DNA of 64,000 bases from an uncultured Actinomycetes bacterium (GTDB taxonomy: Bacteria; Actinomycetota; Thermoleophilia; Gaiellales; Gaiellaceae), in contig CAWJZI010000022.1 in the NCBI GenBank assembly GCA_963847305.1, forward strand, positions 20,385-84,384, given 5' to 3'. Shown piece after piece: positions 3,206-42,184 of this stretch. Every line of letters begins with the position of its first letter. Position 1 is the first letter of the stretch. Below the pieces are notes generated by a model. The model did no database searches. It had not been told where the DNA came from and worked only from the letters and a program-made list of their open reading frames with translations. Made by a program: the position numbers and the translations under genes.

Positions 3206-4131
3206 TCGGCCTCCACCGGCCTGGCCCGGGCCCTGAAGGCGAGCACCACCAGCGCGATCGCGATCGGCAGCACCTCGCGGTAGGACGGCCCGAAGCCGTG
3301 ACCGAACAGCTCGCCGCTCGCGATTCCCGACTCGAGGACGCCGAGTGCGAGGCCGGCGGCGAACGCGCGCAGCGGCGAGCCGAAGCCGACGACGACGGCG
3401 GCGACGAGGCCCTTCACGCCGAGCAGCGCCCCGGTCGTGACGGAGAACGGCCCGCTGGGCGCCGCGGCGACCGCGATCACCACGGCGAGCGCGCCGACCA
3501 GGCCGAACGCGAGCCCCACGTACCGGTCGTGCGGGACGCCGATGATGCGGGCGCCCTCGGGGTCCTCGGCGATCGCCTGGAGCCCTCGGCCGAACTGCGT
3601 GCGCTGGATCACGTAGGTGAGGGCCGCGACGAGGGCAAGGCCGAGCGCGATCACGAAGAGGGAGCGCAGCTGGAAGGTCGCCCCCGCAACCGAGACGATC
3701 CCCTCGTTGCCGGCGCGGTCGAACGGGATCGGGTCCGGGAACACGTACGCCGAGCGCGGGAAGGCGACCGCGAGGATGTTCTCGATCGCGAACGCGATCG
3801 CCACCGTCGCCGCCACCCAGCCGAGCGTGGACCCGCGCACGAGGTACTGGTGGATGACGGCGAAATAGCTGCCCGACCCGACCGCCGCCACCGCAACCAG
3901 CGCGACTGCGAGCCCCGCCAGGAAGCGCCAGCTCGAGGCAGAGGACGCCGTCACCGGCCCGCGGCCGGCGGTCACGAAGAGCGCGATGAACACGCCGAGG
4001 CCGACGAGGTCGCCGAGCGCGAAGTAGACGATCCCGGTCAGCCGGTAGACGAGCGTATGCCCGACCGCGAGCAACCCGTAGACGCTGCCGGCCGCGAGAC
4101 CCGTCAGGATCACCTGCAGGGTCAGATTCAC
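3202..4131 (-). CDS. livH: branched-chain amino acid ABC permease (LivH-like)
   Basis: 309-aa polytopic ORF (MNLTLQVILTGLAAGSVYGLLAVGHTLVYRLTGIVYFALGD...), typical of the LivH family. First gene of the operon. Confidence 0.9.
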   Translation of the reverse strand: MNLTLQVILTGLAAGSVYGLLAVGHTLVYRLTGIVYFALGDLVGLGVFIALFVTAGRGPVTASSASSWRFLAGLAVALVAVAAVGSGSYFAVIHQYLVRGSTLGWVAATVAIAFAIENILAVAFPRSAYVFPDPIPFDRAGNEGIVSVAGATFQLRSLFVIALGLALVAALTYVIQRTQFGRGLQAIAEDPEGARIIGVPHDRYVGLAFGLVGALAVVIAVAAAPSGPFSVTTGALLGVKGLVAAVVVGFGSPLRAFAAGLALGVLESGIASGELFGHGFGPSYREVLPIAIALVVLAFRARARPVEAD

Positions 4132-4889: not shown

Positions 4890-5105
4890 GTGCTGTGGGC
4901 ACTGGCAGACCGTTTCGTCGGTGAGGTGATCGAGCTCTACCGCTCGCGCGAGCAGGCTGAACGAGCTCTGCGCGCGGTGCTCGTGGACGAGCCGGACTGG
5001 ACGGGGATGATGGAGGTCGTACCCGTCCCGCTCTCCGATCCGCACTGGCAGCCGAAGGGCAAGCCCGTCCGCCGGCCGCGCTGCCAGGACCCCTTTCTCG
5101 TTTAA
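4890..5105 (+). CDS. small hypothetical protein (71 aa)
   Basis: GTG at 4890 is preceded by GAGGGGG. Reads VLWALADRFVGEVIELYRSREQAERALRAVLVDEPDWTGMMEVVPV... I recognise no family. Confidence 0.35.
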   Translation: MLWALADRFVGEVIELYRSREQAERALRAVLVDEPDWTGMMEVVPVPLSDPHWQPKGKPVRRPRCQDPFLV

Positions 5106-5183
5106 CCGCCGACGGTGTGGGGCGGGGCGGGACTCCCCGAGCTACTCCGTCGGCGGAAATCGGTGCGACAATTCGTTGCCCCG

Positions 5184-6197
5184 GTGAGAGTTGTGCGTGC
5201 TTTTCCCCTGCTATTGGCGCTATGTGCCGTTTTCGCGTCCGCACAGGCGTCGTCCGGCGCTGCGCCGGTCGCGGTCCCGGACGTCTCGGTCTTCTACTAC
5301 CCCTGGTACGGGACGCCGCCCCGAGACGGGGGCTGGGTGCACTGGACGCGTCCGGATACGACCTCGTACGCCTCCAACTACTACCCCGCCCGAGGGCTCT
5401 ACTCGAGCTCGGACGCGCGCGTCGTTCTGGCCCAGATGCAGGAGATCGCGGGCGCCGGGATCCAGGAGGTCGTCTCCTCGTGGTGGGGCTGGGGCTCCCC
5501 GGAGGACAGGCGGCTCCCGCTCGTGATCTCGGCGGCCCGGCTGGCGCACGTCAGCGTTGCCGCCCATCTCGAGCCGTACCCCGGCCGCAACGTCCTCACG
5601 GTGCGGTCGGACCTCGAGCACCTGGAGCAGCTCGGGATCAGGCGGTTCTTCGTCTACCACCCGTTCGACATCTCCGACGCCGACTGGGCGGCGCTCCGCG
5701 ACAGCCTCCACGGTGTCCAGCTCTTCGCCGAGACGACCCTGATCGGACACGCAGCCGCGGCCCATTTCGACGGCGTCTACACGTACGACATCGTCAACCG
5801 CGGCGCGGGCACCTTCGACCGGTTCTGCAAGGCGGCGCACAAGCTCGAGCTGCTCTGCCTGCCGTCGGTCGGCCCGGGCTACGACGCGATGCGCGCGACC
5901 GGCGACAAGCGAATCAAGCCTCGCCGCGGCGGCAAGACCTACGACTCGATGTGGAGGGCGGCGATCCACTCGAAGCCGGACGGCGTGACGATCACGAGCT
6001 ACAACGAGTGGCACGAGGGGACGCAGATCGAGCCGGCCCGCGCCACGCCGCCCGGGAACGCGGCCAAGCTCTCGTACGAGAGCTACGAAGGCGCCTACGG
6101 GCTGCACGGCAAGGCCGCGGAGCGCGCGTACCTCGACCGGACGCGCTTCTGGGTGCGTGCGTTCGGGCGGTCCGAGCGCCCCGAAGTGCCTGGCTAG
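5184..6197 (+). CDS. secreted glycoside hydrolase family 99-like protein
   Basis: Signal peptide VRVVRAFPLLLALCAVFASAQA. Motifs YYPWYG...W and ITSYNEWHEGTQIEPA are typical of GH99 endo-alpha-mannosidase-like proteins. The ORF is open from 5115, so the start is uncertain. Confidence 0.75.
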   Translation: MRVVRAFPLLLALCAVFASAQASSGAAPVAVPDVSVFYYPWYGTPPRDGGWVHWTRPDTTSYASNYYPARGLYSSSDARVVLAQMQEIAGAGIQEVVSSWWGWGSPEDRRLPLVISAARLAHVSVAAHLEPYPGRNVLTVRSDLEHLEQLGIRRFFVYHPFDISDADWAALRDSLHGVQLFAETTLIGHAAAAHFDGVYTYDIVNRGAGTFDRFCKAAHKLELLCLPSVGPGYDAMRATGDKRIKPRRGGKTYDSMWRAAIHSKPDGVTITSYNEWHEGTQIEPARATPPGNAAKLSYESYEGAYGLHGKAAERAYLDRTRFWVRAFGRSERPEVPG

Positions 6198-6200
6198 GAC

Positions 6201-7226
6201 CTAGCTCTCGACGAAGACGTCGGCGCCGCAGCCGAAGACGAGCGCGTTCAGCACGTCGCCCTCGACGACGCCGCGGAGCGAACGGTGGCCGAGATCGACG
6301 GTCGCTTCCGGCCACTCCTCGAGGCCGAGCGCGGCCGCCCCCTCGTCGGAGCCGAAACACAGCAGCGAGCCGACGGAGATCACGTTCCGCTTCCCGGCGG
6401 CACGACGGGCGGTACCTTCCAGCTCCCGAAGCTCCTCGAGCGGGTCGATGCGGACGTTCGAGTCGGAACCGATGCACATCCCGATCCCGCGGTCGCGGAG
6501 GGCGGCGACGGGGACGAATCCGTCCCCGAGGTTCTCCTCGGTCGTCGGGCACACGCAGACCCGCGCACCGGCCTCCGCGAGCAGGTCGAGCTCGGCATCG
6601 CTCGCGTGCGTCGCGTGGACGACCGTCGTGTGCGGGCCGAGGCAGCCGGAGCGATCGAGCAGCTCGATGGGGCGGACCCCGTGCTCGGCGACGCACTCCT
6701 CGATCTCGCGGGGCTGCTCGTCGGCGTGGACGTGGAGCGGCAGCCCCTCGGCACTCGCGTAGCGCCCGATCTCCTCCAACCACTCGGACGGGCACGCCCG
6801 CACGGAGTGGGGGGCGACGCCGACCCGGATCCCGCGCCCGCGGAGCTCCTCGACCTGCTCGAGGTACGCGGCCGGGGATTCCTGGCGGAAGCGGGGGAGA
6901 CCTCCGCGCGCGTAGGCGGAGAGGAGCAGGGTCAGCGCGACGCCGGCCTCGTCCGCGGCCTCCGCGGCGGCGAATGCCTCGGCGAGCCCGAGGTAGTGGA
7001 ACTCCCCGACCGCCGTGTAGCCGGCGGCGTGCATCTCGGCATAGGTCTCGACGTACTCGGCGCGCACGGTCTCCGGCGTCTGGCGTTCCGCCTCGGCGAG
7101 CATCACTTCGCGCCAGGCCCAGAAATCGCCGCCCTCGGCGCGCCCGCGCAAACGGCGCTGGAACCCGTGCGAGTGGGCGTTGACGAACCCCGGCAGCGCC
7201 AGGCGGCGTGTCTCGGCAGCCCTCAC
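6201..7226 (-). CDS. amidohydrolase, formimidoylglutamate deiminase (HutF)-like, N-terminally short
   Basis: [16 protein letters not shown] (HxH metal motif already at residue ~18), [49 protein letters not shown] and GSDSN are HutF-like. No other hut genes are nearby. Confidence 0.75.
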
Positions 7227-7249: not shown

Positions 7250-10200
7250 ATGGCGGCCGACACGGCACCGTTGCCGATTCTCGCGAAGCTGCCGAATGCG
7301 CTGACGATCGCGCGGTTCGCGCTGATTCCGGTCTTCATCGTCCTGCTCGCGCAGGCCGAAGGAGGGCACAGCTGGGCGGCGGGGATCATCTTCGGCGTCG
7401 CCGCGATCACCGACCAGGTCGACGGCTGGCTCGCGCGCCGCTGGCACGTCGAGTCGGAGTTCGGGAAGTACGCCGACCCGCTCGCCGACCGGCTGATGAT
7501 CGACACGGCGGTGATCATGCTCTTCATCGCCGACCGCCTGCCCTGGGCCGCGCTCGTGGTGATCATCGCGCGCGACGTCCTCCTCGTCGTCGGAACGAAG
7601 TTCGTGCTGGGCCAGTCCAGCTACGAGTTCTCGGTCAGCTTCCTCGGCAAGGCCGCCACCTGGGTGCTCTACGCGGGGATCGCCTTCGTGCTCGTCACCC
7701 CGGAGGGCACGTCCTGGCCGCTCTGGATCTTCTGGATCGGCCTGGGGATGGCCGTCGGCGCCGGCGCGCTCTATGCCGCCTCGGCCTGGCGGACGATTCG
7801 CGGCGGCCGCAGGGTGGAAGTGACCGAGGACGTGAGAGCCGTCGTCATGGCGGGGGGCGAGGGCACGCGCCTTCGCCCGCTGACCTCGAACCAGCCGAAG
7901 CCGATGGTGCCGGTCGTCGGCAAGCCGTGCATGGAGCACATCCTCGAGCTGCTCAAGCGCCACGGCTTCGAGGACGTGATCGTGACGCTCGCGTTCCTGC
8001 CGCAGCAGATCCGCAGCTACTTCGGCGACGGCGAGTCGCTCGGGCTGAACATCGAGTACTCGGTCGAGGAGTCGCCGCTGGGGACAGCCGGCTCGGTTCG
8101 GCTCGCGTCGCGCAAGCTCGACGACACGGTGCTGGTCATCTCCGGCGACGCGCTCTGCGACATCGACCTCGGCGCGCTGCTCCAGTTCCATCGCGACCGC
8201 AAAGCCGCCGTGACGATCGGGCTGAAGGCGGTCGAGAACCCGCTCGAGTTCGGGATCGTCGTCACCGACGAGGACGGCAAGGTCGAGCGCTTCCTGGAGA
8301 AGCCTTCGTGGGGGCAGGTCTTCTCGGACACGATCAACACCGGCATCTACGTGCTCGAGCCGGAGGTGCTGGAGCACGTGCCGACCGACCGGCCGTACGA
8401 CTTCTCCAAGGAGCTCTTCCCGCTCCTGCTCGAGATGGGCCGACCCCTGTACGGGATGGTCTGCGAGGGCTACTGGCAGGACATCGGCAACCTCGACCAG
8501 TTCAAGCAGGCGAACTTCGACGCGCTCGACGGCGCGGTCGAGCTCGAGATCCCCGGGATCCGGCTGCGCGGGAACATCTGGATCGGCGAGGGCGTCGAGA
8601 TCGACGATCTCGAGGACGTCGAGGGGCCGGCGTTCATCGGCAACTACTGCCGCATCTCGCCGCAGGCGTCCATCGGCCCGTACTCGGTGCTGGGCGCGAG
8701 CGTGACGCTGCGCGAGCGTGCCCGCACCGTGCGCTCCGTGATCGATGCCAACACTCACATCGGCCGCAGCGCCCTCGTCGAGGGCGCGATCCTCGGCAGC
8801 GGCTGCGACGTGCGCTCGCACGTGCGCATCCAGGAGGGCGCGGCGATCGGCGACGAGGTCGTCCTCGGCGCGCAGAGCATGGTGCTTCCCGGCGTGCGGA
8901 TCTACCCGTACAAGGAGGTGGAGTCCGGCGCGCATATCCACGAGAGCCTGATCTGGGAGTCCCGTGCGACCTCGGCGCTGTTCGGCAAGGACGGCGTCAC
9001 CGGCCTGATCAACGTCGACCTGACGCCGGAGACGGCCGTGCGTCTCGCCGCCGCGCTCGGCACGGCGCTGAAGCGCGGCGCGCGCGTGGTCGCGAGCCGC
9101 GAGTCCCCGCGTGCGTGCCGGACGATCAAGCGCGCGATGATCACCGGCCTCAACTCCGCCGGGGTGGACGTCGCCGACCTGCGGGTGCTGCCCGCGGCGG
9201 TCAGCCGGCACCTGATGAAGACGCACGGCTACGAGGCCGGGTACCACGTCGGCGTCAGCCAGAGCGACCCCGAGATGATCAAGATCCAGTTCTTCGAGCA
9301 GCCCGGGATCCAGATGACCTCCGCGCTGGAGAAGGAGGTCGAGAAGCACTTCAACCGCCGCGAGCTCAGGCGCGTGCCCTTCGGCGACATCGGCCAGGTG
9401 ACCTACCCGGCGCGCGTGCGCGAGAGCTACGCGCAGGATCTCCTCTCCGAGCTCGACGCCGACGCGATCCGCGCGCGCGGCTTCCGGCTCGTCGTCGACT
9501 ACGGCTACTCGGCGAGCTCCTTCGTCCTCCCGCTGCTGCTCGGGCCGCTCGAGATCGAAGCGGTGACCGCTCACGGGTTCACGACCGACCAGGCCGCCAC
9601 CGCGGCGTCGCTGCGCGGGTCGATCGGCCATACGAAGCGGCTCGTCTCGGCGATCGGGGCGGACCTCGGGGCGGTCTTCGACCGGGCGGGGGAGCGGCTG
9701 TTCCTCGTCGACGAACAGGGCCACGAGCTGCCGGTCGAGAAGACGCTGCTCCTGTTCCTGCGCCTGCTCGGTGCGGCGGGGAAGCGCGGCACCGTCGCCG
9801 TGCCGGTCACGGTCACGAGCCGCGTCGAGGAGCTCGCCGGCGAGGCGGGCCTCGAGGTTCTGCGGACGCCCGCGGCCCCGGCCGAGCTGACGCGCGCGGC
9901 CTCCGAGGACGGCGTCGTCTTCGCGGGCGCGATCGGGGGTTTCTACGTCTTCCCGGAGTTCCTGCCGGCCCACGACGCGGTCACGAGCCTCTGCAAGCTG
10001 CTGGAGCTGCTCGCGAGGGTCGACCGGCCGCTCTCGGAGCTCGCCGCCGATCTGCCGCGCTCCACCGTCGTGCACCGCCAGCTTGCCTGCCCGTGGGCGA
10101 TGAAGGGCCTCGTGATGCGCGTGCTGACCGAGCGGCTGAAAGGCAAGGAGCTCGACCTGACCGACGGGATCAAGGTGATCGACACGCGCGGCTGGGCGGA

Positions 10201-10354
10201 GGTGCTCCCGGACCCCGACGAGCCGCTCGTCCACATCTACGCCGAGGGCGGCACCGCGGAGCTCTCCGCCGAGCTCGAGGCCGAGCTGCAGGAGCTCGTC
10301 GAAGAGGCGATGCAGGGGCAGGAATCCGCCCTTCCGGCTCAAATCTCAAGCTGA
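7250..10354 (+). CDS. three-domain fusion: CDP-alcohol phosphatidyltransferase (PgsA-like) + sugar-1-phosphate nucleotidyltransferase with left-handed beta-helix + phosphohexomutase-like domain
   Basis: One uninterrupted frame. N-terminal membrane domain carries [23 protein letters not shown] (D-G-x2-A-R-x8-G-x3-D-x3-D). Next come [15 protein letters not shown] and EESPLGTAG (NTP transferase), hexapeptide repeats, then PGM/PMM-like domains I-IV. The ORF is open from 7208; the ATG at 7250 is the likelier start. Confidence 0.8.
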
Positions 10355-10356
10355 GG

Positions 10357-10385
10357 TTGAACCTTTTGGCGGCGCCTGCTTCAAT
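10357..10385 (+). promoter_or_regulatory. candidate sigma-70 promoter upstream of the 81-aa ORF
   Basis: TTGAAC, 17-nt spacer, TTCAAT, about 30 nt before the ATG at 10416. An AAAGGGA Shine-Dalgarno sequence is present. Confidence 0.3.
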
Positions 10386-10415
10386 GCGTCGGCTGCTCAA
10401 ACAGAAAGGGATTCG

Positions 10416-10661
10416 ATGGAAGCGCTTCCGGACCTCGCCGGTCTCTCCGATTCCGCACTGAAGAGCCTGATCCACGAGCTCGAGGCGGAGGAGAACGAGA
10501 TCTCTTACCAGCGCCGGCTCCTGCACGGCAAGCTCGACATCCTGCGGGCAGAGCTCGTCGCCCGCCTCCAGAAGAAGGGGGATAGCGAGCTGGGCCAGGT
10601 CGACATCGACCGTCTGACCGAGATCCTCGCCGGAAAGGCAGCTCCACCCAACCAGGAGTAG
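10416..10661 (+). CDS. small coiled-coil protein, RsiG-like (single-motif candidate c-di-GMP-dependent anti-sigma factor)
   Basis: 81 aa, predicted all-helical. EENEISYQRRLLHGKLD fits E-x3-S-x2-R-x3-[Q>H]-x3-D. Good ATG and Shine-Dalgarno context. Confidence 0.6.
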   Translation: MEALPDLAGLSDSALKSLIHELEAEENEISYQRRLLHGKLDILRAELVARLQKKGDSELGQVDIDRLTEILAGKAAPPNQE

Positions 10662-10664
10662 CCG

Positions 10665-11129
10665 TTGAGCCACGTCTACTGTCCCGAGTGCGGGTTTCAG
10701 AACCTCGAATCCGCAAATTACTGCTCGCGCTGCGGCGCGCTGCTCGTCACCGAGGGGGTCGACAACCCAACGGAGACGATCTCCCTCGAGGAGCTCGAGG
10801 AGGCCGCGCACGACGAGATCGAGGCGCTCGGAATCGAGGGCCCGGCGCTCGTCGTCCGCTCAGGGGGCGGACGGGCAGGCGAGCAGTTCCCGCTCGAGCG
10901 CACCCAGACGACGATCGGCCGCACTCCGGACTGCGACATCTTCCTCGACGACGTGACCGTCTCCCGCCGCCATGCGATCGTCGCGCGCGGCGCAGCCGGG
11001 TTCACGCTCGAGGACCTCGGCAGCCTGAACGGGACGTTCCTGAACCGACACCGGATCGAGAAGGCCGATCTCGAGAACGGGGACGAGGTTCAGATCGGCA
11101 AGTACCGCCTCATCTACCTCGCCCGATGA
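10665..11129 (+). CDS. zinc-ribbon + FHA domain protein
   Basis: N-terminal CPECG...CSRCG zinc ribbon. C-terminal FHA domain: GRTPDCDIFLDDVTVSRRHAIV...LGSLNGTFLN...GDEVQIGKYRL. Confidence 0.85.
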   Translation: MSHVYCPECGFQNLESANYCSRCGALLVTEGVDNPTETISLEELEEAAHDEIEALGIEGPALVVRSGGGRAGEQFPLERTQTTIGRTPDCDIFLDDVTVSRRHAIVARGAAGFTLEDLGSLNGTFLNRHRIEKADLENGDEVQIGKYRLIYLAR

Positions 11130-11794
11130 CGACCACCGCACAGGCACCCACGACTCCGCGGCTGCACACGATCGGCGCGATCTGCCGGCGCCTCCAGGCC
11201 GAGTTCCCGGATATCTCGATCTCGAAGATCCGCTACCTCGAGGATCAGGGCCTCCTTTCGCCGAAGCGGACGCGCGGGGGATACCGGCTGTTCAGCGAGG
11301 ACGACGTCGACCGGCTGGAGACCATCCTCCGGCTTCAGCGCGACGAGTTCCTGCCTCTGCGCGTGATCCGCCAGGAGCTCGCCTCGCCCGTCGGCAAGGA
11401 GCGCCGCCGTCGCCACGCGGGGCTCACCGCCTCGCCGCAGTCGATCGACCTCGTCGAGCTCTGCGAGCGTGCCGGCATCTCCGCACAGCAGGGGCGCGAG
11501 CTCGTGGAGTACGGGCTGCTCGAGGCGCCGTTCACCGAGGCAGACGCCGACACGGCCGCCGTCTGCGCCCGCCTGATCACCGCCGGGCTCGACGCACGCC
11601 ATCTGCGCAAGTTCGTCACCGCAGCCGGCAACCAGGCAGACCTGCTCGAGGCGCTCGTCCCGAAGCTGCGCTCGCGGAACCCGGAGGCCCGCCGGGGTGC
11701 GCTCGAGGACCTGCACGGGCTCGCCGAGCTGACCCAGGAGCTGTCCCAGCTGCTCTTCTGGCGGACACTGCGGCATCGGGTGGCATCGACGTGA
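11126..11794 (+). CDS. MerR family transcriptional regulator (FtsR-like)
   Basis: The ATG overlaps the FHA stop (ATGA). HTH: IGAICRRLQAEFPDISISKIRYLEDQGLLSPKRTRGGYRLFSEDDVDRL. FHA-MerR pairing is common in Actinomycetota. Confidence 0.85.
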   Translation: MTTTAQAPTTPRLHTIGAICRRLQAEFPDISISKIRYLEDQGLLSPKRTRGGYRLFSEDDVDRLETILRLQRDEFLPLRVIRQELASPVGKERRRRHAGLTASPQSIDLVELCERAGISAQQGRELVEYGLLEAPFTEADADTAAVCARLITAGLDARHLRKFVTAAGNQADLLEALVPKLRSRNPEARRGALEDLHGLAELTQELSQLLFWRTLRHRVAST

Positions 11795-12306
11795 CCGACC
11801 TCGCGGCCAAGATCCGGGACGTCCCGGACTTTCCCAAGCCCGGGATCGTCTTCAAGGACATCATGCCGCTGCTCGCCGACCCGGAGGCGCTGCGCGAGGC
11901 GGTCGACCAGATCGCGGAGTGGGCAGCCCCGCGGAAGCCCGATCTCGTCCTCGGCGCCGAGGCTCGCGGCTACATCACCGGCGGCGCGCTCGCCTGCCGG
12001 CTCGGCTGCGGTTTTGTCGCCGCGCGCAAGCCCGGAAAGCTGCCGTGGCGGACGGTCGCGGCGAAGTACGCGCTCGAGTACGGCTTCGATTCGCTCGAGG
12101 TCCACGCGGACGCGATCGTCGCCGGGCAGAAGGTGCTGATCCACGACGACGTGCTGGCGACGGGCGGCACCTCGAAGGCGACGGTCGAGCTCGTCGAGCA
12201 GCTCGGCGGTGAGGTCGTCGGCCTGCCGTTCATCATCGAGCTGGAGTTCCTGAACGGACGCGAGCGGCTCGAGGGGTACGAGGTGTACTCCCTGATCAAA
12301 TATTGA
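11791..12306 (+). CDS. apt: adenine phosphoribosyltransferase
   Basis: 171 aa. DFPKPGIVFKDI, GAEARGY and VLIHDDVLATGGT (PRPP-binding motif). The GTGA overlaps the merR stop. Confidence 0.95.
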   Translation: MTDLAAKIRDVPDFPKPGIVFKDIMPLLADPEALREAVDQIAEWAAPRKPDLVLGAEARGYITGGALACRLGCGFVAARKPGKLPWRTVAAKYALEYGFDSLEVHADAIVAGQKVLIHDDVLATGGTSKATVELVEQLGGEVVGLPFIIELEFLNGRERLEGYEVYSLIKY

Positions 12307-12352
12307 CGACTCCAGCGTTTTCTCCGTCTTGCGCATTGGCTAAAAGAGCCTT

Positions 12353-12967
12353 GTGTACGACGCGCTGACGACCCGGTACACGTTCGCGTGTCCGTCACGC
12401 GGAGAGACGGCCGTGCCGCTTTCGAACTTCCGGCGCCTGGAGCGCCTCGAGGGAACCGGACACCCGGTCGTCTACCGCGTGCGGTTCGACTGCCCCTGCG
12501 GAGAGGAGCATCCCGGGCTCGTCTCGCACGACGATCTCGACTGGGCGCCGCTCGGCTTCCACGCCGGCCGGTTCCTGAACCTGCTGACCGCGCGGGTCGA
12601 AGAGGTCGGCGCCGAGCTCGGCGATGCGTCCTGCCGGCGGATCGAGGCGGGGGAGTGGCCCTGGAGCTTCTTCTGCTACCCCGAGGGACGGCCGCGGCCC
12701 GTGTTCCCGTCGTCGTTCTTCCTGCTCGCTCCCGGCGGCCGGGAGACGCGCATCGGGCTCGCCGTTCGCTGCCCGGCCTGCGAGCGGATGTCGCTGAACC
12801 TCGTCTCGCACGAGCACGTCGACCTGCCGTTCCACAACGATCTCGAGATCGGCATCGTCGAGCACGTCTTCGCGGGCGACGCACTCCTGACCGTCGAGGA
12901 GTTCCGGGCAGAGCTGTACTCCGCGAGCTTCGACGCCCGGCGGCTACTGCTCGATGAGATTGCTTAA
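12353..12967 (+). CDS. hypothetical Cys/His-rich protein
   Basis: 204-aa ORF with CPSRG, CPCGEEH, CPACE and HEH clusters. I recognise no family. Confidence 0.55.
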   Translation: MYDALTTRYTFACPSRGETAVPLSNFRRLERLEGTGHPVVYRVRFDCPCGEEHPGLVSHDDLDWAPLGFHAGRFLNLLTARVEEVGAELGDASCRRIEAGEWPWSFFCYPEGRPRPVFPSSFFLLAPGGRETRIGLAVRCPACERMSLNLVSHEHVDLPFHNDLEIGIVEHVFAGDALLTVEEFRAELYSASFDARRLLLDEIA

Positions 12968-13009
12968 GCTCGCGCCGAATCGGGTAGTTCGCAACCCGAT
13001 CAGGAAGGA

Positions 13010-13591
13010 GTGGTGCAGATGATCGGAGCCGTGCGCGGGGTCTTCACGCTTGTCGGAGCCGGCATCGCCGGCCTGCTGATCTGGCTGACGACGCAGATCG
13101 GCACCGGCACGACCGGCGGGTACTGGGAGGTGTACGGGATCTTCGCGGCCGCGGGCCTGACGATGGCCCTGTCGCAGCTGTTCGGCGGCTGGACGAAGTG
13201 GGGGTGGCCGCGGATCTCGGCGGGCGTGCTCCTGATCGGCTTCCTGCCGGTCCTGGTCGTCGGCGGCTGGGTGCTGCTCGCCGGCCAGCCCGACGCGAAC
13301 TGGTTCCAGCGCCACCTCGTCTCCTGGTCCGGCCATGCGGGGATCGACGGCGTGGTCAACGACCTGCGTGAGCAGCTGGCCGTGATCGCGTTCGGGATCG
13401 GCCTCGTCTTCGGGTTCACCTTCGACACGACCGGCCCGAGCGGAACCGCGGCACCCGAGCCGGCGCCGGAGGCGGTGGAGGTGGCGGAAGCGCCGCCGGC
13501 AGAGCCCGTGTCGGAGCCGCCGCCCGTGATGCAGCCGCCGGTCGAGGCGCCCACGGCAGAGGTCGAGCCGAACGAGAGCCGGCGGCTCTAG
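13010..13591 (+). CDS. hypothetical membrane protein with Pro/Ala/Glu-rich tail
   Basis: GTG preceded by AGGAAGGAG. About 4 predicted TM segments, then APEPAPEAVEVAEAPPAEPVSEPPPV. Confidence 0.6.
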   Translation: MVQMIGAVRGVFTLVGAGIAGLLIWLTTQIGTGTTGGYWEVYGIFAAAGLTMALSQLFGGWTKWGWPRISAGVLLIGFLPVLVVGGWVLLAGQPDANWFQRHLVSWSGHAGIDGVVNDLREQLAVIAFGIGLVFGFTFDTTGPSGTAAPEPAPEAVEVAEAPPAEPVSEPPPVMQPPVEAPTAEVEPNESRRL

Positions 13592-14710: not shown

Positions 14711-15046
14711 CGGACCAAAAAAATTCGCCGAGCCGGTGACGCTTTCGTCCGTCGAGCCGACTGACCTTCGGCTTCCGCCTACTGCCGCCCGACTCGACTT
14801 CGACCTACTTGCGCTCCGTGCTCGGCGCAAGCAGCAAGCTATCCGGTCTCCCTCGGTCCGACAAGAGGGGGGACGAAACGAAAAGGACGCAATTTGCGAG
14901 GCGCGCTTTCGGATATCTCCCAACTTGACAGAACGCCGATTATCGGGAGTCGAAGGTCGAGTGGGAGCGGCGGGTTGCGACGAGGGCGACAAACTCGACT
15001 TTCTTGGGCGAACGTGTTTGAATCGCTCACGGGGGCGGGTACACCG

Positions 15047-16132
15047 ATGTACCCGATGATTATGGAAGCACCGATCGCCGCGATCGACAGTGTCGTCCAG
15101 ACGGAAGAGCTCCAGCAGCTCTTCGAGGCCGCAGAGTTGGCCGGCTCCGTGCGGACCTCCGAGCTGACCGAGATCCTCGAACCGCATGCGCTCGCGCCGC
15201 TCGAGGTCGACGCCGTGTACAGGATGTTCGAGGAGCGGGGGATCGAGCTCGTCTACGACGGCGAGCGCGAGGAGGCCGTTGCCCCTCCCCCGCCTTTGCC
15301 GACGGCGCCGCTCGAGACGACCACCGACGCCCTCCAGCTCTTCCTGCGCGAGACCGGCCGCCACCCGCTGCTGACCGCCGCCCAGGAGGTCGAGCTCGCC
15401 AAGAAGATCGAGCGCGGCGACATGCAGGCGAAGACGCACATGATCCAGTCGAACCTGCGCCTCGTCGTCTCGATCGCGAAGAACTACCGCAACCAGGGCT
15501 TGCCGTTCCTCGATCTGATCCAGGAGGGCACGCTCGGGCTGATCCGCGCGGTCGAGAAGTTCGACTGGCGCCGCGGCTACAAGTTCTCCACCTACGCGAC
15601 CTGGTGGATCCGCCAGGCGGTCGCGCGGGCGCTCGCGGACAAGGCGCGGACGATCCGCATGCCCGTCCACATCGTCGAGCGGCTCCAGAAGATGAATCGC
15701 GCCGAGCGGCACCTCTGGACGCAGCTCGGCCGCGAGCCCACGCTCGAGGAGATCGCCGAGGAAGCGAGCCTGCCGATCCACCAGGCAAAGGAGGTGCGCG
15801 CCGCCGCGCGCGCCGCGACGAGTCTCGACCAGCCGGTCGGCGACCAGGACGACGCGGTCCTCGGCGACTTCGTCGCCGGCGAGGGAATGCTCCCCGAAGA
15901 GCAGGTCGAGCTCTCGCTCCGCAGCCAGGCGCTCGCCGCCGCGCTTGCCGCGCTCGGCGACCGCGAGCGGCAAGTGCTCGTCCTCCGCTACGGCCTGGCC
16001 GACTTCGAGCCGAAGACGCTCGAGGAGATCGGACGCCGCCTCGGCCTGACGCGTGAGCGCGTCCGGCAGATCGAGGTCGAGGCGCTCCGCCGGCTCGCGA
16101 CGCTACGCGAGATCGAAGCCGTAGCGCACTAG
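15047..16132 (+). CDS. RNA polymerase sigma-70, primary-like (region 1.1 present)
   Basis: Region 1.1-like N-terminus. Regions 2-4 are fully conserved: [55 protein letters not shown] ... [19 protein letters not shown]. The start could be ATG 15047, 15056 or 15062. Confidence 0.9.
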
Positions 16133-16180: not shown

Positions 16181-17161
16181 CTAAGCCGTTCTGAGATACA
16201 GGAAGAGCTCGGGCGCCTGGGCTCGCAGTTCGCGCAGCGCGCGCCCCTCGAGCTGGCGGACCCGCTCGCGGGTGATCCCGAGCTCGGAGCCCACCTGCTC
16301 CAGCGTCTGCGGCGTCTGGCCGTCCAGCCCGAAGCGCCTGGAGATGACGAACCGCATCCTGGGGTTCAGCGTCTCCAGGGCCTTCGCGAGCTCCTTCGAG
16401 CGCATCGACTCGGCGGTCGTGTCCTCCGGCAGATCGGCGTTCTCGTCCTCGATCAGGTCGCTGTAGACGCTCTCGCCGTCGCCGACCGGGGTCTCGAGCG
16501 AGATCGGGTCATCGATCAGCTCGAGCAGGTCACGCACCTTCGCCTCGGTGAAGCCGCTCTCCTTGGCGATCTCACGCAGGACCGGCTCGCGGTTCAGCTT
16601 CTGGGAGAGGATGCGGCGGGCGCGCATCACGCGCCGCACCTGGTCGGCGACGTGGACGGGAAGGCGGATCGTGCGACCCTGGTCGGCGAGCGCACGGGTC
16701 ACGGCCTGCCGGATCCACCAGGTCGCGTAGGTCGAGAGTTTGTAGCCCATCCGCCAGTCGAACTTCTCGACCGCGCGGATCAGACCGAGATTCCCTTCCT
16801 GGATGAGGTCGAGGAGCGGGACGCCGGCCTTCGTGTAGTTGCGCGTGATCGACATCACGAGCCGGAGGTTCCCCTCGACGAGCTTGCGCTTGGCCTCTTC
16901 GTCGCCCTCGTCCTTGCGCTGGGCGAGCTCGCGCTCCTCCCCCGCTGTCAGCAGGCGGCCGTCGCCGATCTGGCGGACGTAGAGCTTGAGCGGGTCCTGG
17001 ACCGGCACCGGGGCGTCGAGCGTGTCGACATGCTCCTCTTCCAAGGCCTCCGGCTCATCGAGAGCCGGGACGAGCTCGAGCTTCGGCTGCTCTTCCTCGC
17101 GCACAGCGTCGCTCGCAGGGATCTGCTCCACCACACAGGTATCGGCACCGGCCCGCCTCAC
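16181..17161 (-). CDS. RNA polymerase sigma-70, group 2-like
   Basis: [55 protein letters not shown] ... [22 protein letters not shown] 17161 is preceded by GAGGGA. The longer 602-aa ORF overlaps the opposite-strand GATase gene and is rejected. Confidence 0.85.
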
Positions 17162-17248
17162 TGTCCATCCCTCGTGCGAGTGATACACGTTCGAGTGACG
17201 CAGACCGACACCGCGAACCTCCGGAGGCCGGTCTACGATGAAAAGACC

Positions 17249-18814: not shown

Positions 18815-18847
18815 ACGCTCTGCAAAGAGACGCTAGGAGACGGCTGC
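18815..18847. repeat. 33-bp direct repeat, copy A
   Basis: ACGCTCTGCAAAGAGACGCTAGGAGACGGCTGC matches copy B at 31/33 positions. It contains the TAG stop of the HD-GYP fragment on the minus strand. Confidence 0.9.
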
Positions 18848-19321
18848 CAGCTCGGCGGGCTCGTCCGGAGCGGTGATGCTCAGCCCGAGCGCCTGCTCGA
18901 GCGCCCGGATGCAGCGGGGGCAGAACTGCGCGCCCTCCCCGCGGCGAAGCTCGCCGAGCGCCTCGTCCTCGGTCAGCGCGTGGCGATAGATGCGGGCCGT
19001 CAGCATCGAGTCGAGCGCGTCCGCGACGTGAATGATCCGTGCTCCGAGCGGGATCTCCTCGCCGGAGAGCCCGTCCGGGTAGCCGGAGCCGTCGTACCGC
19101 TCGTGGTGGTGGCGGATCGCCGGCACGGCGTCGGCAAGGAAGCCGAGGCGCTCGATGAGTCGCGCGCCCTCGTCGGCGTGGCCACGCATCAGCCGCCACT
19201 CCTCGGTGTCCAGGCGGGCCGGCTTCATCATGATCGAGTCGGGGATCGCCAGCTTGCCGATGTCGTGGAAGAGCGCTGCGTGTCCGAGCAGGTCGAGCTC
19301 CGCCTTCGAGACGCTCTGCAA
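18833..19321 (-). pseudogene. 5'-truncated HD-GYP domain ORF (c-di-GMP phosphodiesterase family remnant)
   Basis: Starts inside the domain at ...LLGHAALFHDIGKLAIPDSIMMKPARLDTEEW...HHERYDGSGYPDGL...ADALDSMLTARIYR. The first His-containing helix and any sensor or receiver domain are missing. Upstream the frame is only the antisense of murT. Confidence 0.6.
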
Positions 19322-19343
19322 ATAGACACTAGGAGACGGCTGC
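19311..19343. repeat. 33-bp direct repeat, copy B
   Basis: ACGCTCTGCAAATAGACACTAGGAGACGGCTGC, 496 bp from copy A. On the minus strand both copies begin an ORF reading MQSV from a TTG. Confidence 0.9.
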
Positions 19344-19366
19344 GAGGCCTCCAAAGAGGCGCCCTC

Positions 19367-19372
19367 TAGACT
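19367..19372 (+). promoter_or_regulatory. candidate -10 hexamer TAGACT, 7 nt upstream of the murT ATG (leaderless-type)
   Basis: cTAGACTgggccgaATG, with no Shine-Dalgarno sequence. The same hexamer lies 6 nt before the ribokinase GTG at 46437. Confidence 0.35.
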
Positions 19373-19379
19373 GGGCCGA

Positions 19380-20744
19380 ATGCGACTTGCGCTCGAAATG
19401 GCGGTTGCCAGGCTTGCCGGGCGCCTTTCCCGCCTGGCCGGACGAGGCGGCGGAACCACCCTTCCGGGCAAGGTGCTCGCCACGATCGACCCGGGCGCGG
19501 TGTCGACGCTGGCGGCCCGGCTCCCGCTCGGGACGGCGGTCGTCTCGGCCACGAACGGCAAGACGACGACCGCCTCGCTGGTCGCCGGAATCCTCTCACC
19601 GCGAATCCGGCTGGCGCACAACAGCTCCGGAGCGAACCTCGTTTCCGGGGTCGCCTCCACGCTGCTGGCGGCAGACGGCGCCGAGCTCGGGCTCTTCGAG
19701 GTGGACGAGGGCGCGTTCCCGGACATCGCCGCTCGCGTCCGGCCGCGGGCGGTCTGCCTCGGCAACCTGTTCCGCGACCAGCTCGACCGCTACGGCGAGC
19801 TCGAACGGATCGCGGAGCGCTGGCGGGAGGCTGTCCGTGCGCTTCCGGCCGGTTCGAGGCTCGTCGTCAACGCAGACGACCCGCAGGTGGGCGATCTCGC
19901 GACCGAGCGGCCGGAGGCGACGACGTTCGGCGTCGACGATCCCGCGCAGGCGAGGCCGTCTCTCCAGCACGCCGCCGACTCGAAGTACTGCCTGCGCTGC
20001 GGCACGCCCTACGCATATGCAGCGGCCTACGTCGGCCATCTCGGAGACTACCGGTGCCCGCACTGCGGTCACGGGCGTCCGCCCCTCGCCGTTTCGGCCC
20101 GCGCGATCGAGCTCACCGGGCTCGACGCCGCCTCCTTCGACCTGGTCACGCCGGAGGGGACGCGGCGCGTCAGGCTCGCCCTGCCCGGGCTCTACAACGT
20201 CTACAACGCCCTTGCCGCCGCCGCCCTCGCGCGCGAGCTGGGCGCGAGCCTGGACGAGATCGAGGCGGGGCTCGCCGGCGCGCGACCGGCGTTCGGGCGC
20301 TTCGAACGGATCGCGGTCGGCGACAGGACCGTGCTCCTGCTCCTGATCAAGAACCCTGCCGGGGCGAACGAGGCCGTGCGGACGCTGGTCGCGGGCGGCG
20401 CGCCGTCGCTCGCGGTGATCGCGCTGAACGACGCGATCGCCGACGGGCGCGACGTGTCCTGGATCTGGGACGTCGACTTCGAGCCGCTCCTGGAAAGCCT
20501 CGAGCGCCTCGTGGTCACCGGCGGGCGGGCGGCGGAGCTGGCCGTTCGCTGCAAGTACGGCGGGCTCGACGCCTCTGCGATCGAGGTCGTCCCGGACCTC
20601 GAGCGCGCGCTCGACCGCGGGCTGGAGCTCACACCGCCCGGCGGTGTCTTGACCGTCCTCCCCACCTACACGGCGATGCTCGCGCTCCGGCGCGTGCTCG
20701 CGCGTCGCGGCAGCGTGCCGCAGTACTGGGAGCGCGCAGCGTGA
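19380..20744 (+). CDS. murT: lipid II isoglutaminyl synthase, Mur ligase-like subunit
   Basis: 454 aa. Contains TNGKTTT, the Cys4 ribbon CLRCG...CPHCG, and a C-terminal DUF1727-like domain (NDAIADGRDVSWIWDVDFE). Confidence 0.9.
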   Translation: MRLALEMAVARLAGRLSRLAGRGGGTTLPGKVLATIDPGAVSTLAARLPLGTAVVSATNGKTTTASLVAGILSPRIRLAHNSSGANLVSGVASTLLAADGAELGLFEVDEGAFPDIAARVRPRAVCLGNLFRDQLDRYGELERIAERWREAVRALPAGSRLVVNADDPQVGDLATERPEATTFGVDDPAQARPSLQHAADSKYCLRCGTPYAYAAAYVGHLGDYRCPHCGHGRPPLAVSARAIELTGLDAASFDLVTPEGTRRVRLALPGLYNVYNALAAAALARELGASLDEIEAGLAGARPAFGRFERIAVGDRTVLLLLIKNPAGANEAVRTLVAGGAPSLAVIALNDAIADGRDVSWIWDVDFEPLLESLERLVVTGGRAAELAVRCKYGGLDASAIEVVPDLERALDRGLELTPPGGVLTVLPTYTAMLALRRVLARRGSVPQYWERAA

Positions 20745-37686: not shown

Positions 37687-38037
37687 TCAACCGGCGAAAA
37701 GGGTCAATAGCCCCCAGAACCCGACTGCAAGAGCTGCGGTAGTTGCGAAAAGAACGCCGACGATCCCGAGCAGGCGGCCGATCCGGGCCGTGCTCGCGCC
37801 GCCGGCGCGGCCGAGCGTCAGGACGATCCGCTCGCGGGCGCGGCGCGCGAGGAGGATCGCGAACCAGCCCAGCAGCAGCGCGACGGCGATCGAGATCGTC
37901 GCGAGCCGCAGCGTCACCCGCTCGCTCTCGCGCGCGAGCGCGACGCCCGCGGGCATCGCGATCAGGGAGAGAACCCCGCACGCGAGCGACCACCCCGCGC
38001 GCGGGTTCGCCCTATTGCTTGACGTACGGCCGTCCAA
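37687..38037 (-). CDS. hypothetical membrane protein
   Basis: 116 aa with 3 hydrophobic segments. It overlaps the 3' end of the upstream permease by 26 nt, so the start is uncertain. Confidence 0.45.
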   Translation of the reverse strand: MDGRTSSNRANPRAGWSLACGVLSLIAMPAGVALARESERVTLRLATISIAVALLLGWFAILLARRARERIVLTLGRAGGASTARIGRLLGIVGVLFATTAALAVGFWGLLTLFAG

Positions 38038-39274
38038 CAGCTGCGGGCGGAACCGACCTGCCGATCACTCCGATCACGGCGATGAGCGTGATCACGTAAG
38101 GAACGGATTGCACGAGGACGTTGTACTCGTAGCCGTACCCCTGGACGCGCGTGGCGAGGCCGCCGAAGAAACCGAACAGGAGCGCGAAGGCGAAGGCGCC
38201 TCCCGGTCGCCAGTTGCCTGCGATCAGCGCGGCGAGACCGATGAACCCGCGGCCTGCGGTCATGTTCTCGGTGAACGAGTGGACGTAGCCGATCGCCAGG
38301 TACGCGCCGCCGAGCGAGGCGATCACGCCGGAGAGGATGACCGCGCCGTAGCGCGTCTTGTAGACGTCGATCCCGACGGTCTCGGCTGCGCGCGGATGCT
38401 CGCCGACCGACCGCAGGCGCAGGCCGATCGACGTCCGGAACATGACGAAGTACGCGAGGACGATCACGGCGAACAGCACCCAGATCATCAGGTTGAGATG
38501 GCCGAACGCCTGGTACCAGAAGCTCGGCCGGCCGGGGTCCTTCGGCGGAATGTGGTTCAGGAAGTGGAGGTTCACGTCCGGGATGTACGGGACGCCCGTG
38601 CCCGGCGTGCCGTTCAGCCCGTAGATCTGGATGAAGAAGTAGCCGGTGATGCCGACGGCGAGGAAGTTGATCGCCGTGCCGCCGACGATCTGGTCGGAGC
38701 GCATGTGCACCGAGAAGAACGCGTGGATCAGGCCGAGCACCGCGCCGGAGATCGCCGCGGTCAGGATCCCGAGCTCCCACGAGTTGAACTTGTCCGCGCC
38801 GAGGATCCCGAAGAAGCAGCCGGAGAGCATCATCCCCTCGAGGCCGATGTTCACCACCCCGCTCCGCTCGGAGAACATGCCGCCGATCGCGGCGAAGGCG
38901 AGCGGCGTCGCGAAGACGAACATGTTGTAGGTCAACTGGCCCCAGTCGACGACGCCGGCGCCCGAGGACGTCGTCAGCGCGCCGTCGAGGTGCGCGAGGC
39001 TCGACTGCGTCGCGCCGTAGGCGAGCAGGGCGCAGATCCCCGCGACCGCAACGCCGCCCCAACCCAGCTTGGTCTCGCCGCGGGCGGCGGCCCACGCGCC
39101 GCAGGCCGCGCCGACCGCGACCAGGATGAACGACGTCACCGGCGAGCGGAGCGTGACCGGCGGCAGGACGAGCCAGAGCCCGAGGGCAGACAGGGCGATC
39201 CCGGCCCAGCACGTCCAGCGCACGGCGGACTCGGAGCGGATCGCCTGCTGGACGGTCGGCGAGAGCGCACTCAC
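38012..39274 (-). CDS. ABC permease (nucleoside/simple-sugar, BMP-associated, second permease)
   Basis: GTG 39274 overlaps the stop of permease 1 (GTGA). 420 aa, polytopic, with GGMFSERSGVVNIGLEGMM. Confidence 0.85.
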   Translation of the reverse strand: MSALSPTVQQAIRSESAVRWTCWAGIALSALGLWLVLPPVTLRSPVTSFILVAVGAACGAWAAARGETKLGWGGVAVAGICALLAYGATQSSLAHLDGALTTSSGAGVVDWGQLTYNMFVFATPLAFAAIGGMFSERSGVVNIGLEGMMLSGCFFGILGADKFNSWELGILTAAISGAVLGLIHAFFSVHMRSDQIVGGTAINFLAVGITGYFFIQIYGLNGTPGTGVPYIPDVNLHFLNHIPPKDPGRPSFWYQAFGHLNLMIWVLFAVIVLAYFVMFRTSIGLRLRSVGEHPRAAETVGIDVYKTRYGAVILSGVIASLGGAYLAIGYVHSFTENMTAGRGFIGLAALIAGNWRPGGAFAFALLFGFFGGLATRVQGYGYEYNVLVQSVPYVITLIAVIGVIGRSVPPAAVGRPYVKQ

Positions 39275-40570
39275 GACGAGGTACCCCCTGCGGCTGCTGT
39301 TGCCGCCGCCGGGGGCGCGGCCGGCTTGCCCTTGATCTTCTTCCGGAAATTCCAGAGCCAGAGGAAGAACAGGTCGGCGCCCACGAAGAGCAGCACGAGC
39401 CCCTGGATGATCAGGGTCAGGTTGCCGGCGAGCTCGGGCTTGATCACGTCCTGGATCGCCGGGTTCCTCGTCGACGTCCCCTGGAGCAGCGCGCCGAAGA
39501 GCAGCGCGCGCGAGCGGGACGCCGATCGCCGAGTTGCGGCCGAGCAGCGCGACGGCGATGCCGATGAAGCCGATCTGGGAGACCTGGATGTCGAGCACGC
39601 CGAGGCGGAACTGCCAGCCGAGGATGTCGATCGCGCCCGCGAGCCCGGCGAACGTGCCCGAGATCGCCATCGCCAGCACGTAGCTGCGCTTCACGCTGAT
39701 CCCGCCGTAGCGCGCCGCCTCCGGGTTGAACCCGGTCGCGCGCACCTCGTAGCCGAGCGTCGTGCGGTTGAGGATGATCCAGTAGACGACCGGCGCGGCC
39801 AGGGCGATGAAGAACCCGACGTGCAGCCCCTGGAGGACCGGGTCGCCCCAGAAGACCGGCAGGTGGGCCTTCTGCACGATGTCGCTGGACACCGGGACGG
39901 ACTTGTCGACGCTGTTCTGGAGCTGGCCGCCCTGGCCGACCAGGGCCTGCGTTATCCAGATCGCTATCCAGTTCAGCATGATCGTCGAGATCACCTCGTG
40001 CACCCCGACGGTCGCTTTCAGGAAGCCGGCGATCGCCGCCCAGGCCGCCCCCGCCACGGCCGCGAGCACGATCGTGATCGCGATGTGCAGCCCCGAGTTC
40101 ATGTTCGCCCAGGAGGCGCCGACCCAGGCCGAGATGAACGCTCCGACGATGTACTGGCCCTGGCCGCCGATGTTGAACAGGCCGCACTTGAACGCGAACG
40201 AGACCGCGAAGCCGGTCAGGATCAGCCCGGTCGTCAGGATCAGCGTCTGCTGGAGGTTGAAGGCGGCCTCGTCCCGCGCGTCGCCCATCACCCACGGGAA
40301 GAGCCAGTTCAGCCCGGTGCCGTCGAAGATCCCCTTGAACGCCTTGAACGGGTTGTGGCCGGTGACGGCGACCACGATCATCGCCATCGCGAAGGCGAAG
40401 AGCGTCGTCACGAGCGGCATCACGATCCCGCCGGCGCGCTGCATCAGCGCCATCCGGGCCGCGACGCTCGGCGCGTAGTCGCCCCCGTGCACCTCCTCTG
40501 GTGTCTGGAGGAGCTCGTCCTGTTCCGCCGCGAGTTTCTCTTCTTGCGGGTCGAGCGGGCCCTCGGTCAC
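39271..40570 (-). CDS. ABC permease (BMP-associated, first permease); one frameshift (near 39505-39520)
   Basis: GLFNIGGQGQY motif. The C-terminal LLFGALLQGTSTRNPAIQDVIKPELAGNLTLIIQGLVLLFVGADLFF... lies in another frame that ends at TGA 39271. Confidence 0.85.
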
Positions 40571-42104: not shown

Positions 42105-42184
42105 GAGGCGGGATTCTCTCACGGAAAAGGAAGAGGCGGGCACGTGGCCCGCCTCTCCGCGTGTGTCGTCGAGCGATGCCGCTT

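Follow-up and report, generated by a model that had tools for sequence, protein, structure and literature searches.

The stretch of DNA analysed here (the window, 64,000 nucleotides (nt) of contig CAWJZI010000022.1 from the Gaiellaceae assembly GCA_963847305.1) carries on its forward strand a compact group of genes in which a small open reading frame (ORF) of 81 codons is followed by the genes for a zinc-ribbon FHA protein, a MerR-family regulator and an adenine phosphoribosyltransferase (apt). A preliminary description of this locus had compared the 81-residue protein with RsiG, an anti-sigma factor that depends on cyclic di-GMP (c-di-GMP), and had proposed that its gene forms one transcription unit with the next two. 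We have found that this protein (MEALPDLAGLSDSALKSLIHELEAEENEISYQRRLLHGKLDILRAELVARLQKKGDSELGQVDIDRLTEILAGKAAPPNQE), judged by its sequence, is a member of the known RsiG family and not a variant with an unexplained substitution, and that its gene stands at the head of a gene group whose order is conserved in all the related loci that could be compared.

The product is a helical protein containing the motif E-x3-S-x2-R-x3-H-x3-D (EENEISYQRRLLHGKLD; residues E26, S30, R33, H37, and D41), as had been stated, and all the other statements made about its sequence check out as well. When the residues of the protein were shuffled 200,000 times, the motif arose in only 37 cases. The comparison with the family profile, Pfam PF22802, gave an E-value of 6.8e-20 and 71 bits (cutoff 27) over profile positions 2-65 of 65, and a phmmer search of the PDB sequences matched the RsiG of Streptomyces venezuelae (1.9e-10, an alignment of query residues 3-73 that takes in the C-terminal DRLSEIL helix) and that of Rubrobacter radiotolerans (RsiG_Rr; 1e-7, query residues 5-50), RsiG being the only protein to rise above weak noise. 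The proposed RsiG identity is thus borne out. An AlphaFold2 model built with 25 homologs predicts two helices (residues 12-54 and 58-71) with the linker KKGDSELG (mean predicted local distance difference test score of 82), and this modelled helix-linker-helix corresponds to the subunit architecture described for RsiG_Rr. The fold search of the monomer model against the PDB returned nothing at E ≤0.001, which we do not count against RsiG membership because a lone long helix is uninformative in such a search.

The ORF also behaves as a coding sequence. It is preceded by the Shine-Dalgarno sequence GAAAGGG (10404-10410, 5 nt before the ATG at 10416), it ends in a TAG at 10659-10661, and an in-frame start farther upstream is impossible. 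Both GAAAGGG and a start of the type (A/G/T)TG-GAA are kept in the aligned loci of its relatives, the Thermoleophilia orthologs share one beginning (M-[DE]-x-[FL]-P-D-L), and the C-terminal helix is conserved as D-x-D-R-L-T-E-I-L. The GC content is 0.84 at third codon positions (GC3) and 0.34 at second positions in a window of 70.5% GC, as expected of a genuine gene.

A histidine at the fourth position of the motif is in fact the norm in this family. Of 440 retrieved homologs, 432 have one complete motif or more, and H occupies the stacking position in 458 cases against 22 for Q. Schumacher et al. (2021; PMC8325347) noted that the Q is frequently an H able to make the same stacking contact and wrote the motif as E(X)3S(X)2R(X)3[Q/H](X)3D. 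The H-type single-motif RsiG of Conexibacter woesei (RsiG_Cw) binds c-di-GMP with a dissociation constant of 25 µM alone and 1.7 µM with WhiG and does not bind cyclic di-AMP, and each of the five single-motif RsiGs co-purified with its WhiG (PMC8325347). The effect of the Q-to-H change, left as a question in the preliminary description, is therefore answered for the class of single-motif RsiGs by the [Q/H] motif and the binding measured for RsiG_Cw.

The closest RsiG proteins (85-96% identity) come from soil metagenomes and the named ones among them are from Gaiellaceae, and the best 80 genomic loci all belong to metagenome-assembled genomes (MAGs) of Thermoleophilia (Gaiellales, Solirubrobacterales, and Thermoleophilaceae), with 55-75% identity. 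The deep-branching actinobacterial placement suggested previously agrees with this Thermoleophilia-like genome and its Gaiellaceae relatives. The protein search listed 5,956 family clusters at 90% identity and the representative search found 919 at 50%. With more than 5,900 clusters at the 90% level, the family is much larger in soil metagenomes than its catalogue of 135 homologs. Contigs assigned to Verrucomicrobiota and Candidatus Eisenbacteria (P0096 and L073) also carry RsiG-like proteins or trios that are almost identical; these contigs are probably mis-binned Thermoleophilia rather than a spread of the family beyond Actinomycetota.

We compared the gene order across loci sampled by searches seeded with the window protein and one Rubrobacter-type protein, a design that places Streptomyces-type RsiG loci outside the sample. 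The order CDP-alcohol transferase, rsiG, FHA gene, ftsR (the MerR-family gene) was present in 99 of the 99 loci with enough flanking DNA, and this synteny is much stronger than what is visible from the window alone. It holds for 82 of 82 Thermoleophilia loci, in which the CDP-alcohol transferase gene comes with or without the nucleotidyltransferase/phosphomannomutase part and apt is next in most. The slot upstream of FHA-ftsR is likewise occupied in three loci of more distant single-motif homologs and in five of twin-motif homologs of 146-201 residues, three of which have a wider context identical to that of the window. In ten Rubrobacter-type loci, found through a protein (P0296, the one match of a word-indexed protein search with the 46-residue RsiG_Rr fragment) that is 73% identical to the crystallised RsiG_Rr fragment, rsiG lies between a nucleotidyltransferase/phosphomannomutase gene and FHA-ftsR-apt; in the best of these loci, RsiG agrees with the 7LQ2 fragment at 33 of 46 residues. 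The left neighbour of rsiG, a CDP-OH_P_transf gene, appears as one or two genes across related loci. The co-occurrence of the trio in Thermoleophilia and Rubrobacter-type bacteria, which had been put forward as a check, holds in these sampled loci.

The spacing of these genes is equally constant. The 3 nt between rsiG and the FHA gene and the ATGA overlap (11126-11129) of the FHA stop with the ftsR start hold as first described, and across 95 loci the median gaps are +1 nt for rsiG-FHA (mostly -10 to +27) and -4 nt for FHA-ftsR. Furthermore, the GTG with which apt begins overlaps the stop codon of ftsR (GTGA, 11791-11794), a junction missed in the earlier note, and this overlap indicates that apt is probably the fourth gene of the transcription unit, past the end previously given to it. 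In most loci apt follows ftsR, the Rubrobacter-type ones included. The RsiG papers that we text-searched do not mention FHA or MerR, the 2021 paper (PMC8325347) likewise does not mention the synteny, and a literature search for RsiG together with FHA returned nothing relevant. The conserved rsiG-garA-ftsR-apt unit and the repeat resembling an FtsR box described below appear to be new here, and the twin-motif forms at the same locus are a further gain.

Table 1. Features of the rsiG locus and its surroundings, with positions in the window and the basis of each assignment.
Feature	Position	Strand	Basis
CDP-alcohol phosphatidyltransferase + nucleotidyltransferase/hexapeptide + phosphomannomutase/phosphoglucomutase, fused ORF of 1048 residues	7208..10354	+	Pfam domains
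Inverted repeat AAATCTCAAGCTGAGGTTGAACCTT, core CTCAAG-N5-GTTGA at 10345-10360; candidate FtsR operator	10341..10365	+	conservation (operator role inferred)
Candidate sigma-70-like promoter: -35 TTGAAC 10357-10362, 17-nt spacer, TG 10377-10378, -10 TTCAAT 10380-10385	10357..10385	+	read from sequence (inferred)
rsiG-like gene, 81-residue single-motif RsiG homolog	10416..10661	+	motif, Pfam, PDB matches, AlphaFold2 model
GarA/OdhI-like FHA protein, 154 residues, N-terminal C4 zinc ribbon	10665..11129	+	Pfam FHA, Zn_Ribbon_1; PDB matches
ftsR, MerR-family regulator, 222 residues	11126..11794	+	NCBIfam NF050798, Pfam MerR_1
apt, adenine phosphoribosyltransferase	11791..12306	+	NCBIfam apt equivalogs above cutoff
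Convergent RpoD-like sigma gene pair	14894-16132 / ~16181-17200	+ / -	
HD-GYP domain protein	18833-19765	-	HDIGK and HHERYDGSGYP kept; first ~40 profile positions missing

The FHA gene starts with a TTG and has an AGGAG (10654-10658) inside the end of rsiG; in the orthologs ATG, TTG, and GTG interchange as start codons at the same position. The best PDB matches of its product are GarA (2.2e-27) and OdhI (2.2e-24), but it scores 125.9 bits against the NCBIfam OdhI model (NF041660), below the cutoff of 200, in a match that begins at profile position 20, and a zinc ribbon stands at its N-terminus in place of the ETTS phospho-acceptor segment. Because of this low score and the absence of the N-terminal ETTS segment, the protein is filed, on sequence grounds, as GarA/OdhI-like and not as a member of that family. 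The ortholog alignment shows that the FHA proteins of these lineages all carry the N-terminal C4 zinc ribbon (CPECGF...NYCxxCG), followed by a Thr-rich linker with PTETIS in the window and a conserved TT-x-[ST]-[YF] in the orthologs. This PTETIS or TT-x-S/T linker presumably resembles the ETTS phospho-acceptor site of GarA/OdhI. The MerR protein reached 186.5 bits against the FtsR model NF050798 (cutoff 150) over profile positions 2-221 of 223, which supports the FtsR-like assignment made before, and its orthologs in related loci carry Rv1828_C. In Actinobacteria ftsR has been reported to lie always downstream of odhI/garA, and the gene upstream of these to be variable (Kraxner et al. 2019, PMC6683498).

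The rsiG upstream region contains a conserved element, an inverted repeat whose 5-nt spacer includes the TGA stop of the preceding gene. In 47 Gaiellales loci the repeat block is at least 80% conserved, whereas the rest of the spacer upstream of rsiG is variable. Sixty of the 99 loci have the strict pattern CT[AC]AAG-N5-[CG]TT[GCT]A in the 200 nt that precede rsiG, a number that rises to 78 when the pattern is relaxed, and 62 of the 66 occurrences of the strict pattern on both strands of the 2.14 Mb of fetched sequence are at this site. FtsR (Rv1828/Cg1631) is a MerR-type activator of ftsZ, a gene absent from the window, and binds an imperfect inverted repeat of 25 bp. The experimentally defined FtsR box of the Corynebacterium glutamicum ftsZ promoter is AACCCTAAAGTAAAGGTTGAGGGTA, with the core CTAAAG-N5-GTTGA (PMC6683498). 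Out of about 128,000 window positions, the 25-mer of the repeat ranks second in its match to this box (15 of 25) and is tied first for the Mycobacterium tuberculosis box (16 of 25), statistics that are post hoc; FtsR-box matches as good as this occur by chance once or twice elsewhere in the window, inside coding sequence. The full C. glutamicum box was not found in the window with up to three mismatches, the core and the spacing being the only features in common. Given that core and 5-nt spacing are as in the published box and that the strict pattern is almost confined to this site, the repeat may be considered a candidate FtsR operator, which would imply autoregulation of the operon containing rsiG.

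The right half of the repeat overlaps the -35-like TTGAAC of a candidate sigma-70-like promoter, and about half of the aligned loci likewise show -35/-10-like hexamers (TTTACT, TTAACT, TTCAAT). A standard promoter and terminator scan of positions 10000-13100 reported zero sites; this promoter would be missed by a consensus scan because its -10 has no A at position 2. The Rubrobacter-type loci (L091-L100) have a different and strongly conserved block about 60 nt upstream of the rsiG start, CTAAGAYTGYACTTSAGGTTSAGGG...GTTATAC. In these loci the ATG comes about 7 nt after TATAC(T), an arrangement resembling a leaderless promoter, and the AGGTTSAGGG of the block is similar to the right half-site of the FtsR box.

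All these data are best explained, in our opinion, if the 81-residue protein is a true single-motif RsiG that sequesters a sigma-28 factor of the WhiG2 type and is encoded by the first cistron of an ancestral rsiG-FHA-ftsR-apt unit, and we consider this probable as a whole. The protein would be the Gaiellales-like positional ortholog of the small RsiGs characterised in Rubrobacter and in other Thermoleophilia. On the model of the solved R. radiotolerans complex, two subunits would pair their long helices (residues ~12-54) as an antiparallel coiled coil to which each contributes one E-x3-S-x2-R-x3-H-x3-D motif, so that both would clamp a partly intercalated c-di-GMP dimer. We expect such binding from the conservation of the full motif and from the affinity measured for RsiG_Cw. 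The loaded dimer would then sequester a WhiG2-type sigma-28 encoded elsewhere in the genome. With rsiG first, the garA/odhI-like FHA gene, ftsR, and apt would be translationally coupled neighbours, and the unit is probably driven from the promoter that the FtsR-box-like repeat overlaps.

Several observations weigh against this explanation. No sigma-28 gene was found in the window, where the only two sigma-70 family genes both have region 1.2 and are RpoD-like (group 1/2), as had been noted before, and RpoD-like genes were again the only ones found in the 6 kb on either side of rsiG, scanned in 86 loci. These searches covered the window and the rsiG flanks, and the WhiG of this organism, as of any Gaiellales genome, is a putative one. 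Promoter patterns of the WhiG type (TAAA or TCAA, N15-17, GCCGA; GCCGATAA with up to one mismatch) are at about chance level in the window. The protein also lacks the N-terminal extension of about 33 residues whose helix contacts sigma region 2 in RsiG_Rr. Moreover, the orthology to the RsiGs of C. woesei, Thermoleophilum album, and Patulibacter medicamentivorans is based on the statement of one homolog per genome (PMC8325347) together with the loci of MAGs of the same orders. The preliminary description had treated the missing partner as an open point. However, rsiG is about 1.5 Mb away from whiG in S. venezuelae (PMC7005675) and, as the two genes are unlinked there, the absence of whiG from 64 kb says little and is no argument against a WhiG partner; RsiG has been reported to co-occur always with a WhiG homolog (PMC12871210). 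In the register given by the PDB sequence alignment (query residue n equals RsiG_Rr residue n+33), the WhiG-contacting residues D39 and R77 of RsiG_Rr are retained as D6 and R44, R72 is replaced by K39, and K60 by N27.

Among the known systems, the RsiGs of C. woesei (Cwoe_3492), T. album, and P. medicamentivorans (PMC8325347) are the closest, being likewise small, single-motif proteins from Thermoleophilia (H is stated for RsiG_Cw), and at the rsiG-FHA-ftsR locus MAGs of these orders encode proteins with 55-62% identity. The three RsiGs homodimerise, bind c-di-GMP, and co-purify with WhiG, properties that are predicted for the window protein, and they belong to orders other than the Gaiellales-like one of the window. 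RsiG_Rr (PDB 7LQ2, 7LQ3, and 7LQ4) also has a single motif on one long helix and homodimerises as an antiparallel coiled coil that encloses a dimer of c-di-GMP, and its close relatives share the rsiG-FHA-ftsR-apt slot with the window gene. It differs in having Q instead of H, in its N-terminal extension (FDW...ED), and in its C-terminal helix (SPEELARVLLG, DIDRLTEILAG here), and the Rubrobacter-type upstream region, conserved and leaderless-promoter-like, also differs from that of the window. The S. venezuelae RsiG (AmfC; PDB 6PFJ and 6PFV) is the best PDB sequence match, its alpha1 half aligns and the motif chemistry is the same; however, it is a monomer with two motifs, both with Q, has a loop shielding c-di-GMP and controls sporulation. 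As for the neighbouring genes, the odhI/garA-ftsR cluster (PMC6683498) likewise has an FHA gene and then an overlapping ftsR, whereas the window adds the zinc ribbon to the FHA protein and has apt downstream instead of a bifunctional nuclease gene and a second MerR gene. The gene upstream, variable in that cluster, is consistently rsiG in the sampled Thermoleophilia and Rubrobacter-type lineages.

The synteny suggests a link between c-di-GMP sensing, phospho-Thr signalling, and FtsR, as had been proposed, and a different explanation would make this link a physical one, with the RsiG-like c-di-GMP sensor binding the adjacent GarA-like FHA protein or FtsR, with or without WhiG, so that the c-di-GMP level is fed into 2-oxoglutarate metabolism or into the control of ftsZ expression. 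The invariant adjacency with near-zero or overlapping spacing in 95-99 loci of Thermoleophilia, Rubrobacter-type, and other lineages, in single- and twin-motif forms alike, agrees with such a contact, and so do the FtsR-box-like repeat at the operon promoter and the absence of whiG near all 86 scanned loci. In addition, the conserved Thr/Ser of the C-terminal helix (RL-T-EIL) would suit a pT-x-x-L FHA ligand in Thermoleophilia. Nevertheless, several homologs have Ser at this residue and the Rubrobacter type has Ala, and FHA domains require pThr; what speaks for a contact of RsiG with FHA or FtsR is synteny, which is weak evidence in a garA-ftsR region that is old, of mixed function and preceded by varying genes (PMC6683498). 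In the same classes, those single-motif RsiGs that have been validated do bind WhiG, and the RsiG-FHA fusions present in databases are singleton frameshift artefacts. In fact, all four fusions of RsiG with a zinc-ribbon FHA protein (P0138, P0176, P0193, and P0209) were discarded on account of out-of-frame junk between the domains. We regard such a partnership with the neighbouring proteins as unlikely.

It could also be that this is an ordinary RsiG whose gene order is inherited and whose transcription is shared without any regulatory meaning, the repeat belonging to the conserved promoter (its -35 TTGA and a symmetric counterpart) or serving an unrelated regulator as binding site. The coincidence of the right half of the repeat with the -35-like TTGAAC would fit this, as would a match to the FtsR box of only 15-16 of 25 positions that coding sequence in the window equals once or twice, and the C. 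glutamicum FtsR has not been reported to bind its own operon. The Rubrobacter-type loci, moreover, keep the same gene order with a different conserved sequence upstream. Yet the repeat is far better conserved than its surroundings and is almost confined to one site in the fetched sequence, its symmetry reaches past the -35, and both its half-site core and its 5-nt spacing equal those of the experimentally defined box, and we give a small probability to a gene order devoid of regulatory significance. Finally, a generic coiled-coil peptide or a spurious GC-rich ORF with a fortuitous motif, which the shortness and purely helical nature of the protein and the empty fold search of the monomer might suggest, is effectively refuted by the number of clusters (5,956 and 919) and the retention of every motif residue in nearly all retrieved homologs, by the coding-like GC3 with a conserved start codon and Shine-Dalgarno sequence, and by the significant profile and PDB sequence matches to RsiG.

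The protein itself is only one more member, of the Gaiellales type, of a family described in 2020-2021, and its context is the more useful part. RsiG, the only known c-di-GMP-dependent anti-sigma factor, appears to be ancestrally placed as the first gene of the garA/odhI-ftsR operon, which is tied to 2-oxoglutarate control and ftsZ transcription. This raises the questions of whether rsiG expression depends on FtsR and whether c-di-GMP or RsiG provides an input into FtsR or GarA. A bolder proposal, which we hold to be doubtful, is that in the deepest-branching Actinomycetota RsiG was built into the GarA-FtsR module under the control of FtsR, perhaps touching FHA or FtsR, that the WhiG switch of Streptomyces came later and unlinked, and that the twin motifs were duplicated in place several times. 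If this were true, a second messenger, Ser/Thr-kinase signalling, central metabolism, and ftsZ expression would form one circuit.

The twin-motif forms lie at L086:2031-2588, L087:6001-6525, L088:6001-6507, L089:676-1281, and L090:6001-6441. In some of these proteins the two halves are 46-70% identical (70% in P0121 and 65% in P0130) versus 33% in the S. venezuelae RsiG, and for one twin-motif homolog at this type of locus the top four PDB fold matches are S. venezuelae RsiG with a probability of 1.00. The high identity between halves suggests that twin-motif RsiGs arose by repeated and recent intragenic duplications and not by one ancient event, and the published account of a single intragenic duplication may need qualifying. 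Two Rubrobacter-type homologs in the conserved slot (L099:~5950-6207 and L100:~3250-3537) have lost the c-di-GMP motif, with the degenerate sequences ERMVGYRLSVLRGRMD and ERVAAFRLEVLRGRAN in which S is changed to G/A, R to L, Q to R, and, in one of them, D to N.

Other genes around the unit deserve mention. Many Gaiellales loci also have the convergent RpoD-like pair, at 3-5 kb downstream of the trio. To call the HD-GYP gene a remnant, as in the preliminary description, is fair, since the first ~40 profile positions are missing while HDIGK and GSGYP are kept; the N-terminal ~150 codons of its ORF are rich in Ala, Ser, Pro, and Arg and are probably untranslated. The close relative L001 has a GGDEF gene immediately past the HD-GYP gene, and in L089 a FliW gene (4907-5410) and a GGDEF gene are located 3-4 kb downstream of a twin-motif rsiG-FHA-ftsR-apt unit. 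A FliW gene near the unit indicates that genes for flagella are present in this relative, which presumably also encodes a sigma factor of the FliA/WhiG type; a literature search for Gaiella with flagella returned nothing relevant.

The ORF of 1048 residues upstream of rsiG has counterparts as two genes in L001, L087, L088, and L090, while the single tblastn match in L010 extends over the two parts, so that the fusion of the CDP-alcohol transferase with the nucleotidyltransferase/phosphomannomutase may be real. Directly after apt, at 12353-12967, is the gene for a Cys-rich protein of 204 residues (CPSRGE, CPCGEEH, CPACER) without Pfam or NCBIfam match, which is found in the same place in most Gaiellales loci with 57-74% identity. 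Farther away, the long ORF at 38012-42942 (-) and that at 44602-46221 (-) with 48876-50630 (-) contain two BPD_transp_2 permease domains, or a Bmp substrate-binding and two ABC ATPase domains, and 48876-50630 (-) is a pfkB-nucleoside hydrolase fusion, near which both of its domains occur again as partial copies; these ORFs may reflect genuine fusions or duplications, or else assembly frameshifts. The remainder of the window is a housekeeping core that includes hflX, dapF, miaB, rny, recA, cinA, ftsK, rnj, dapA, and murT/gatD.

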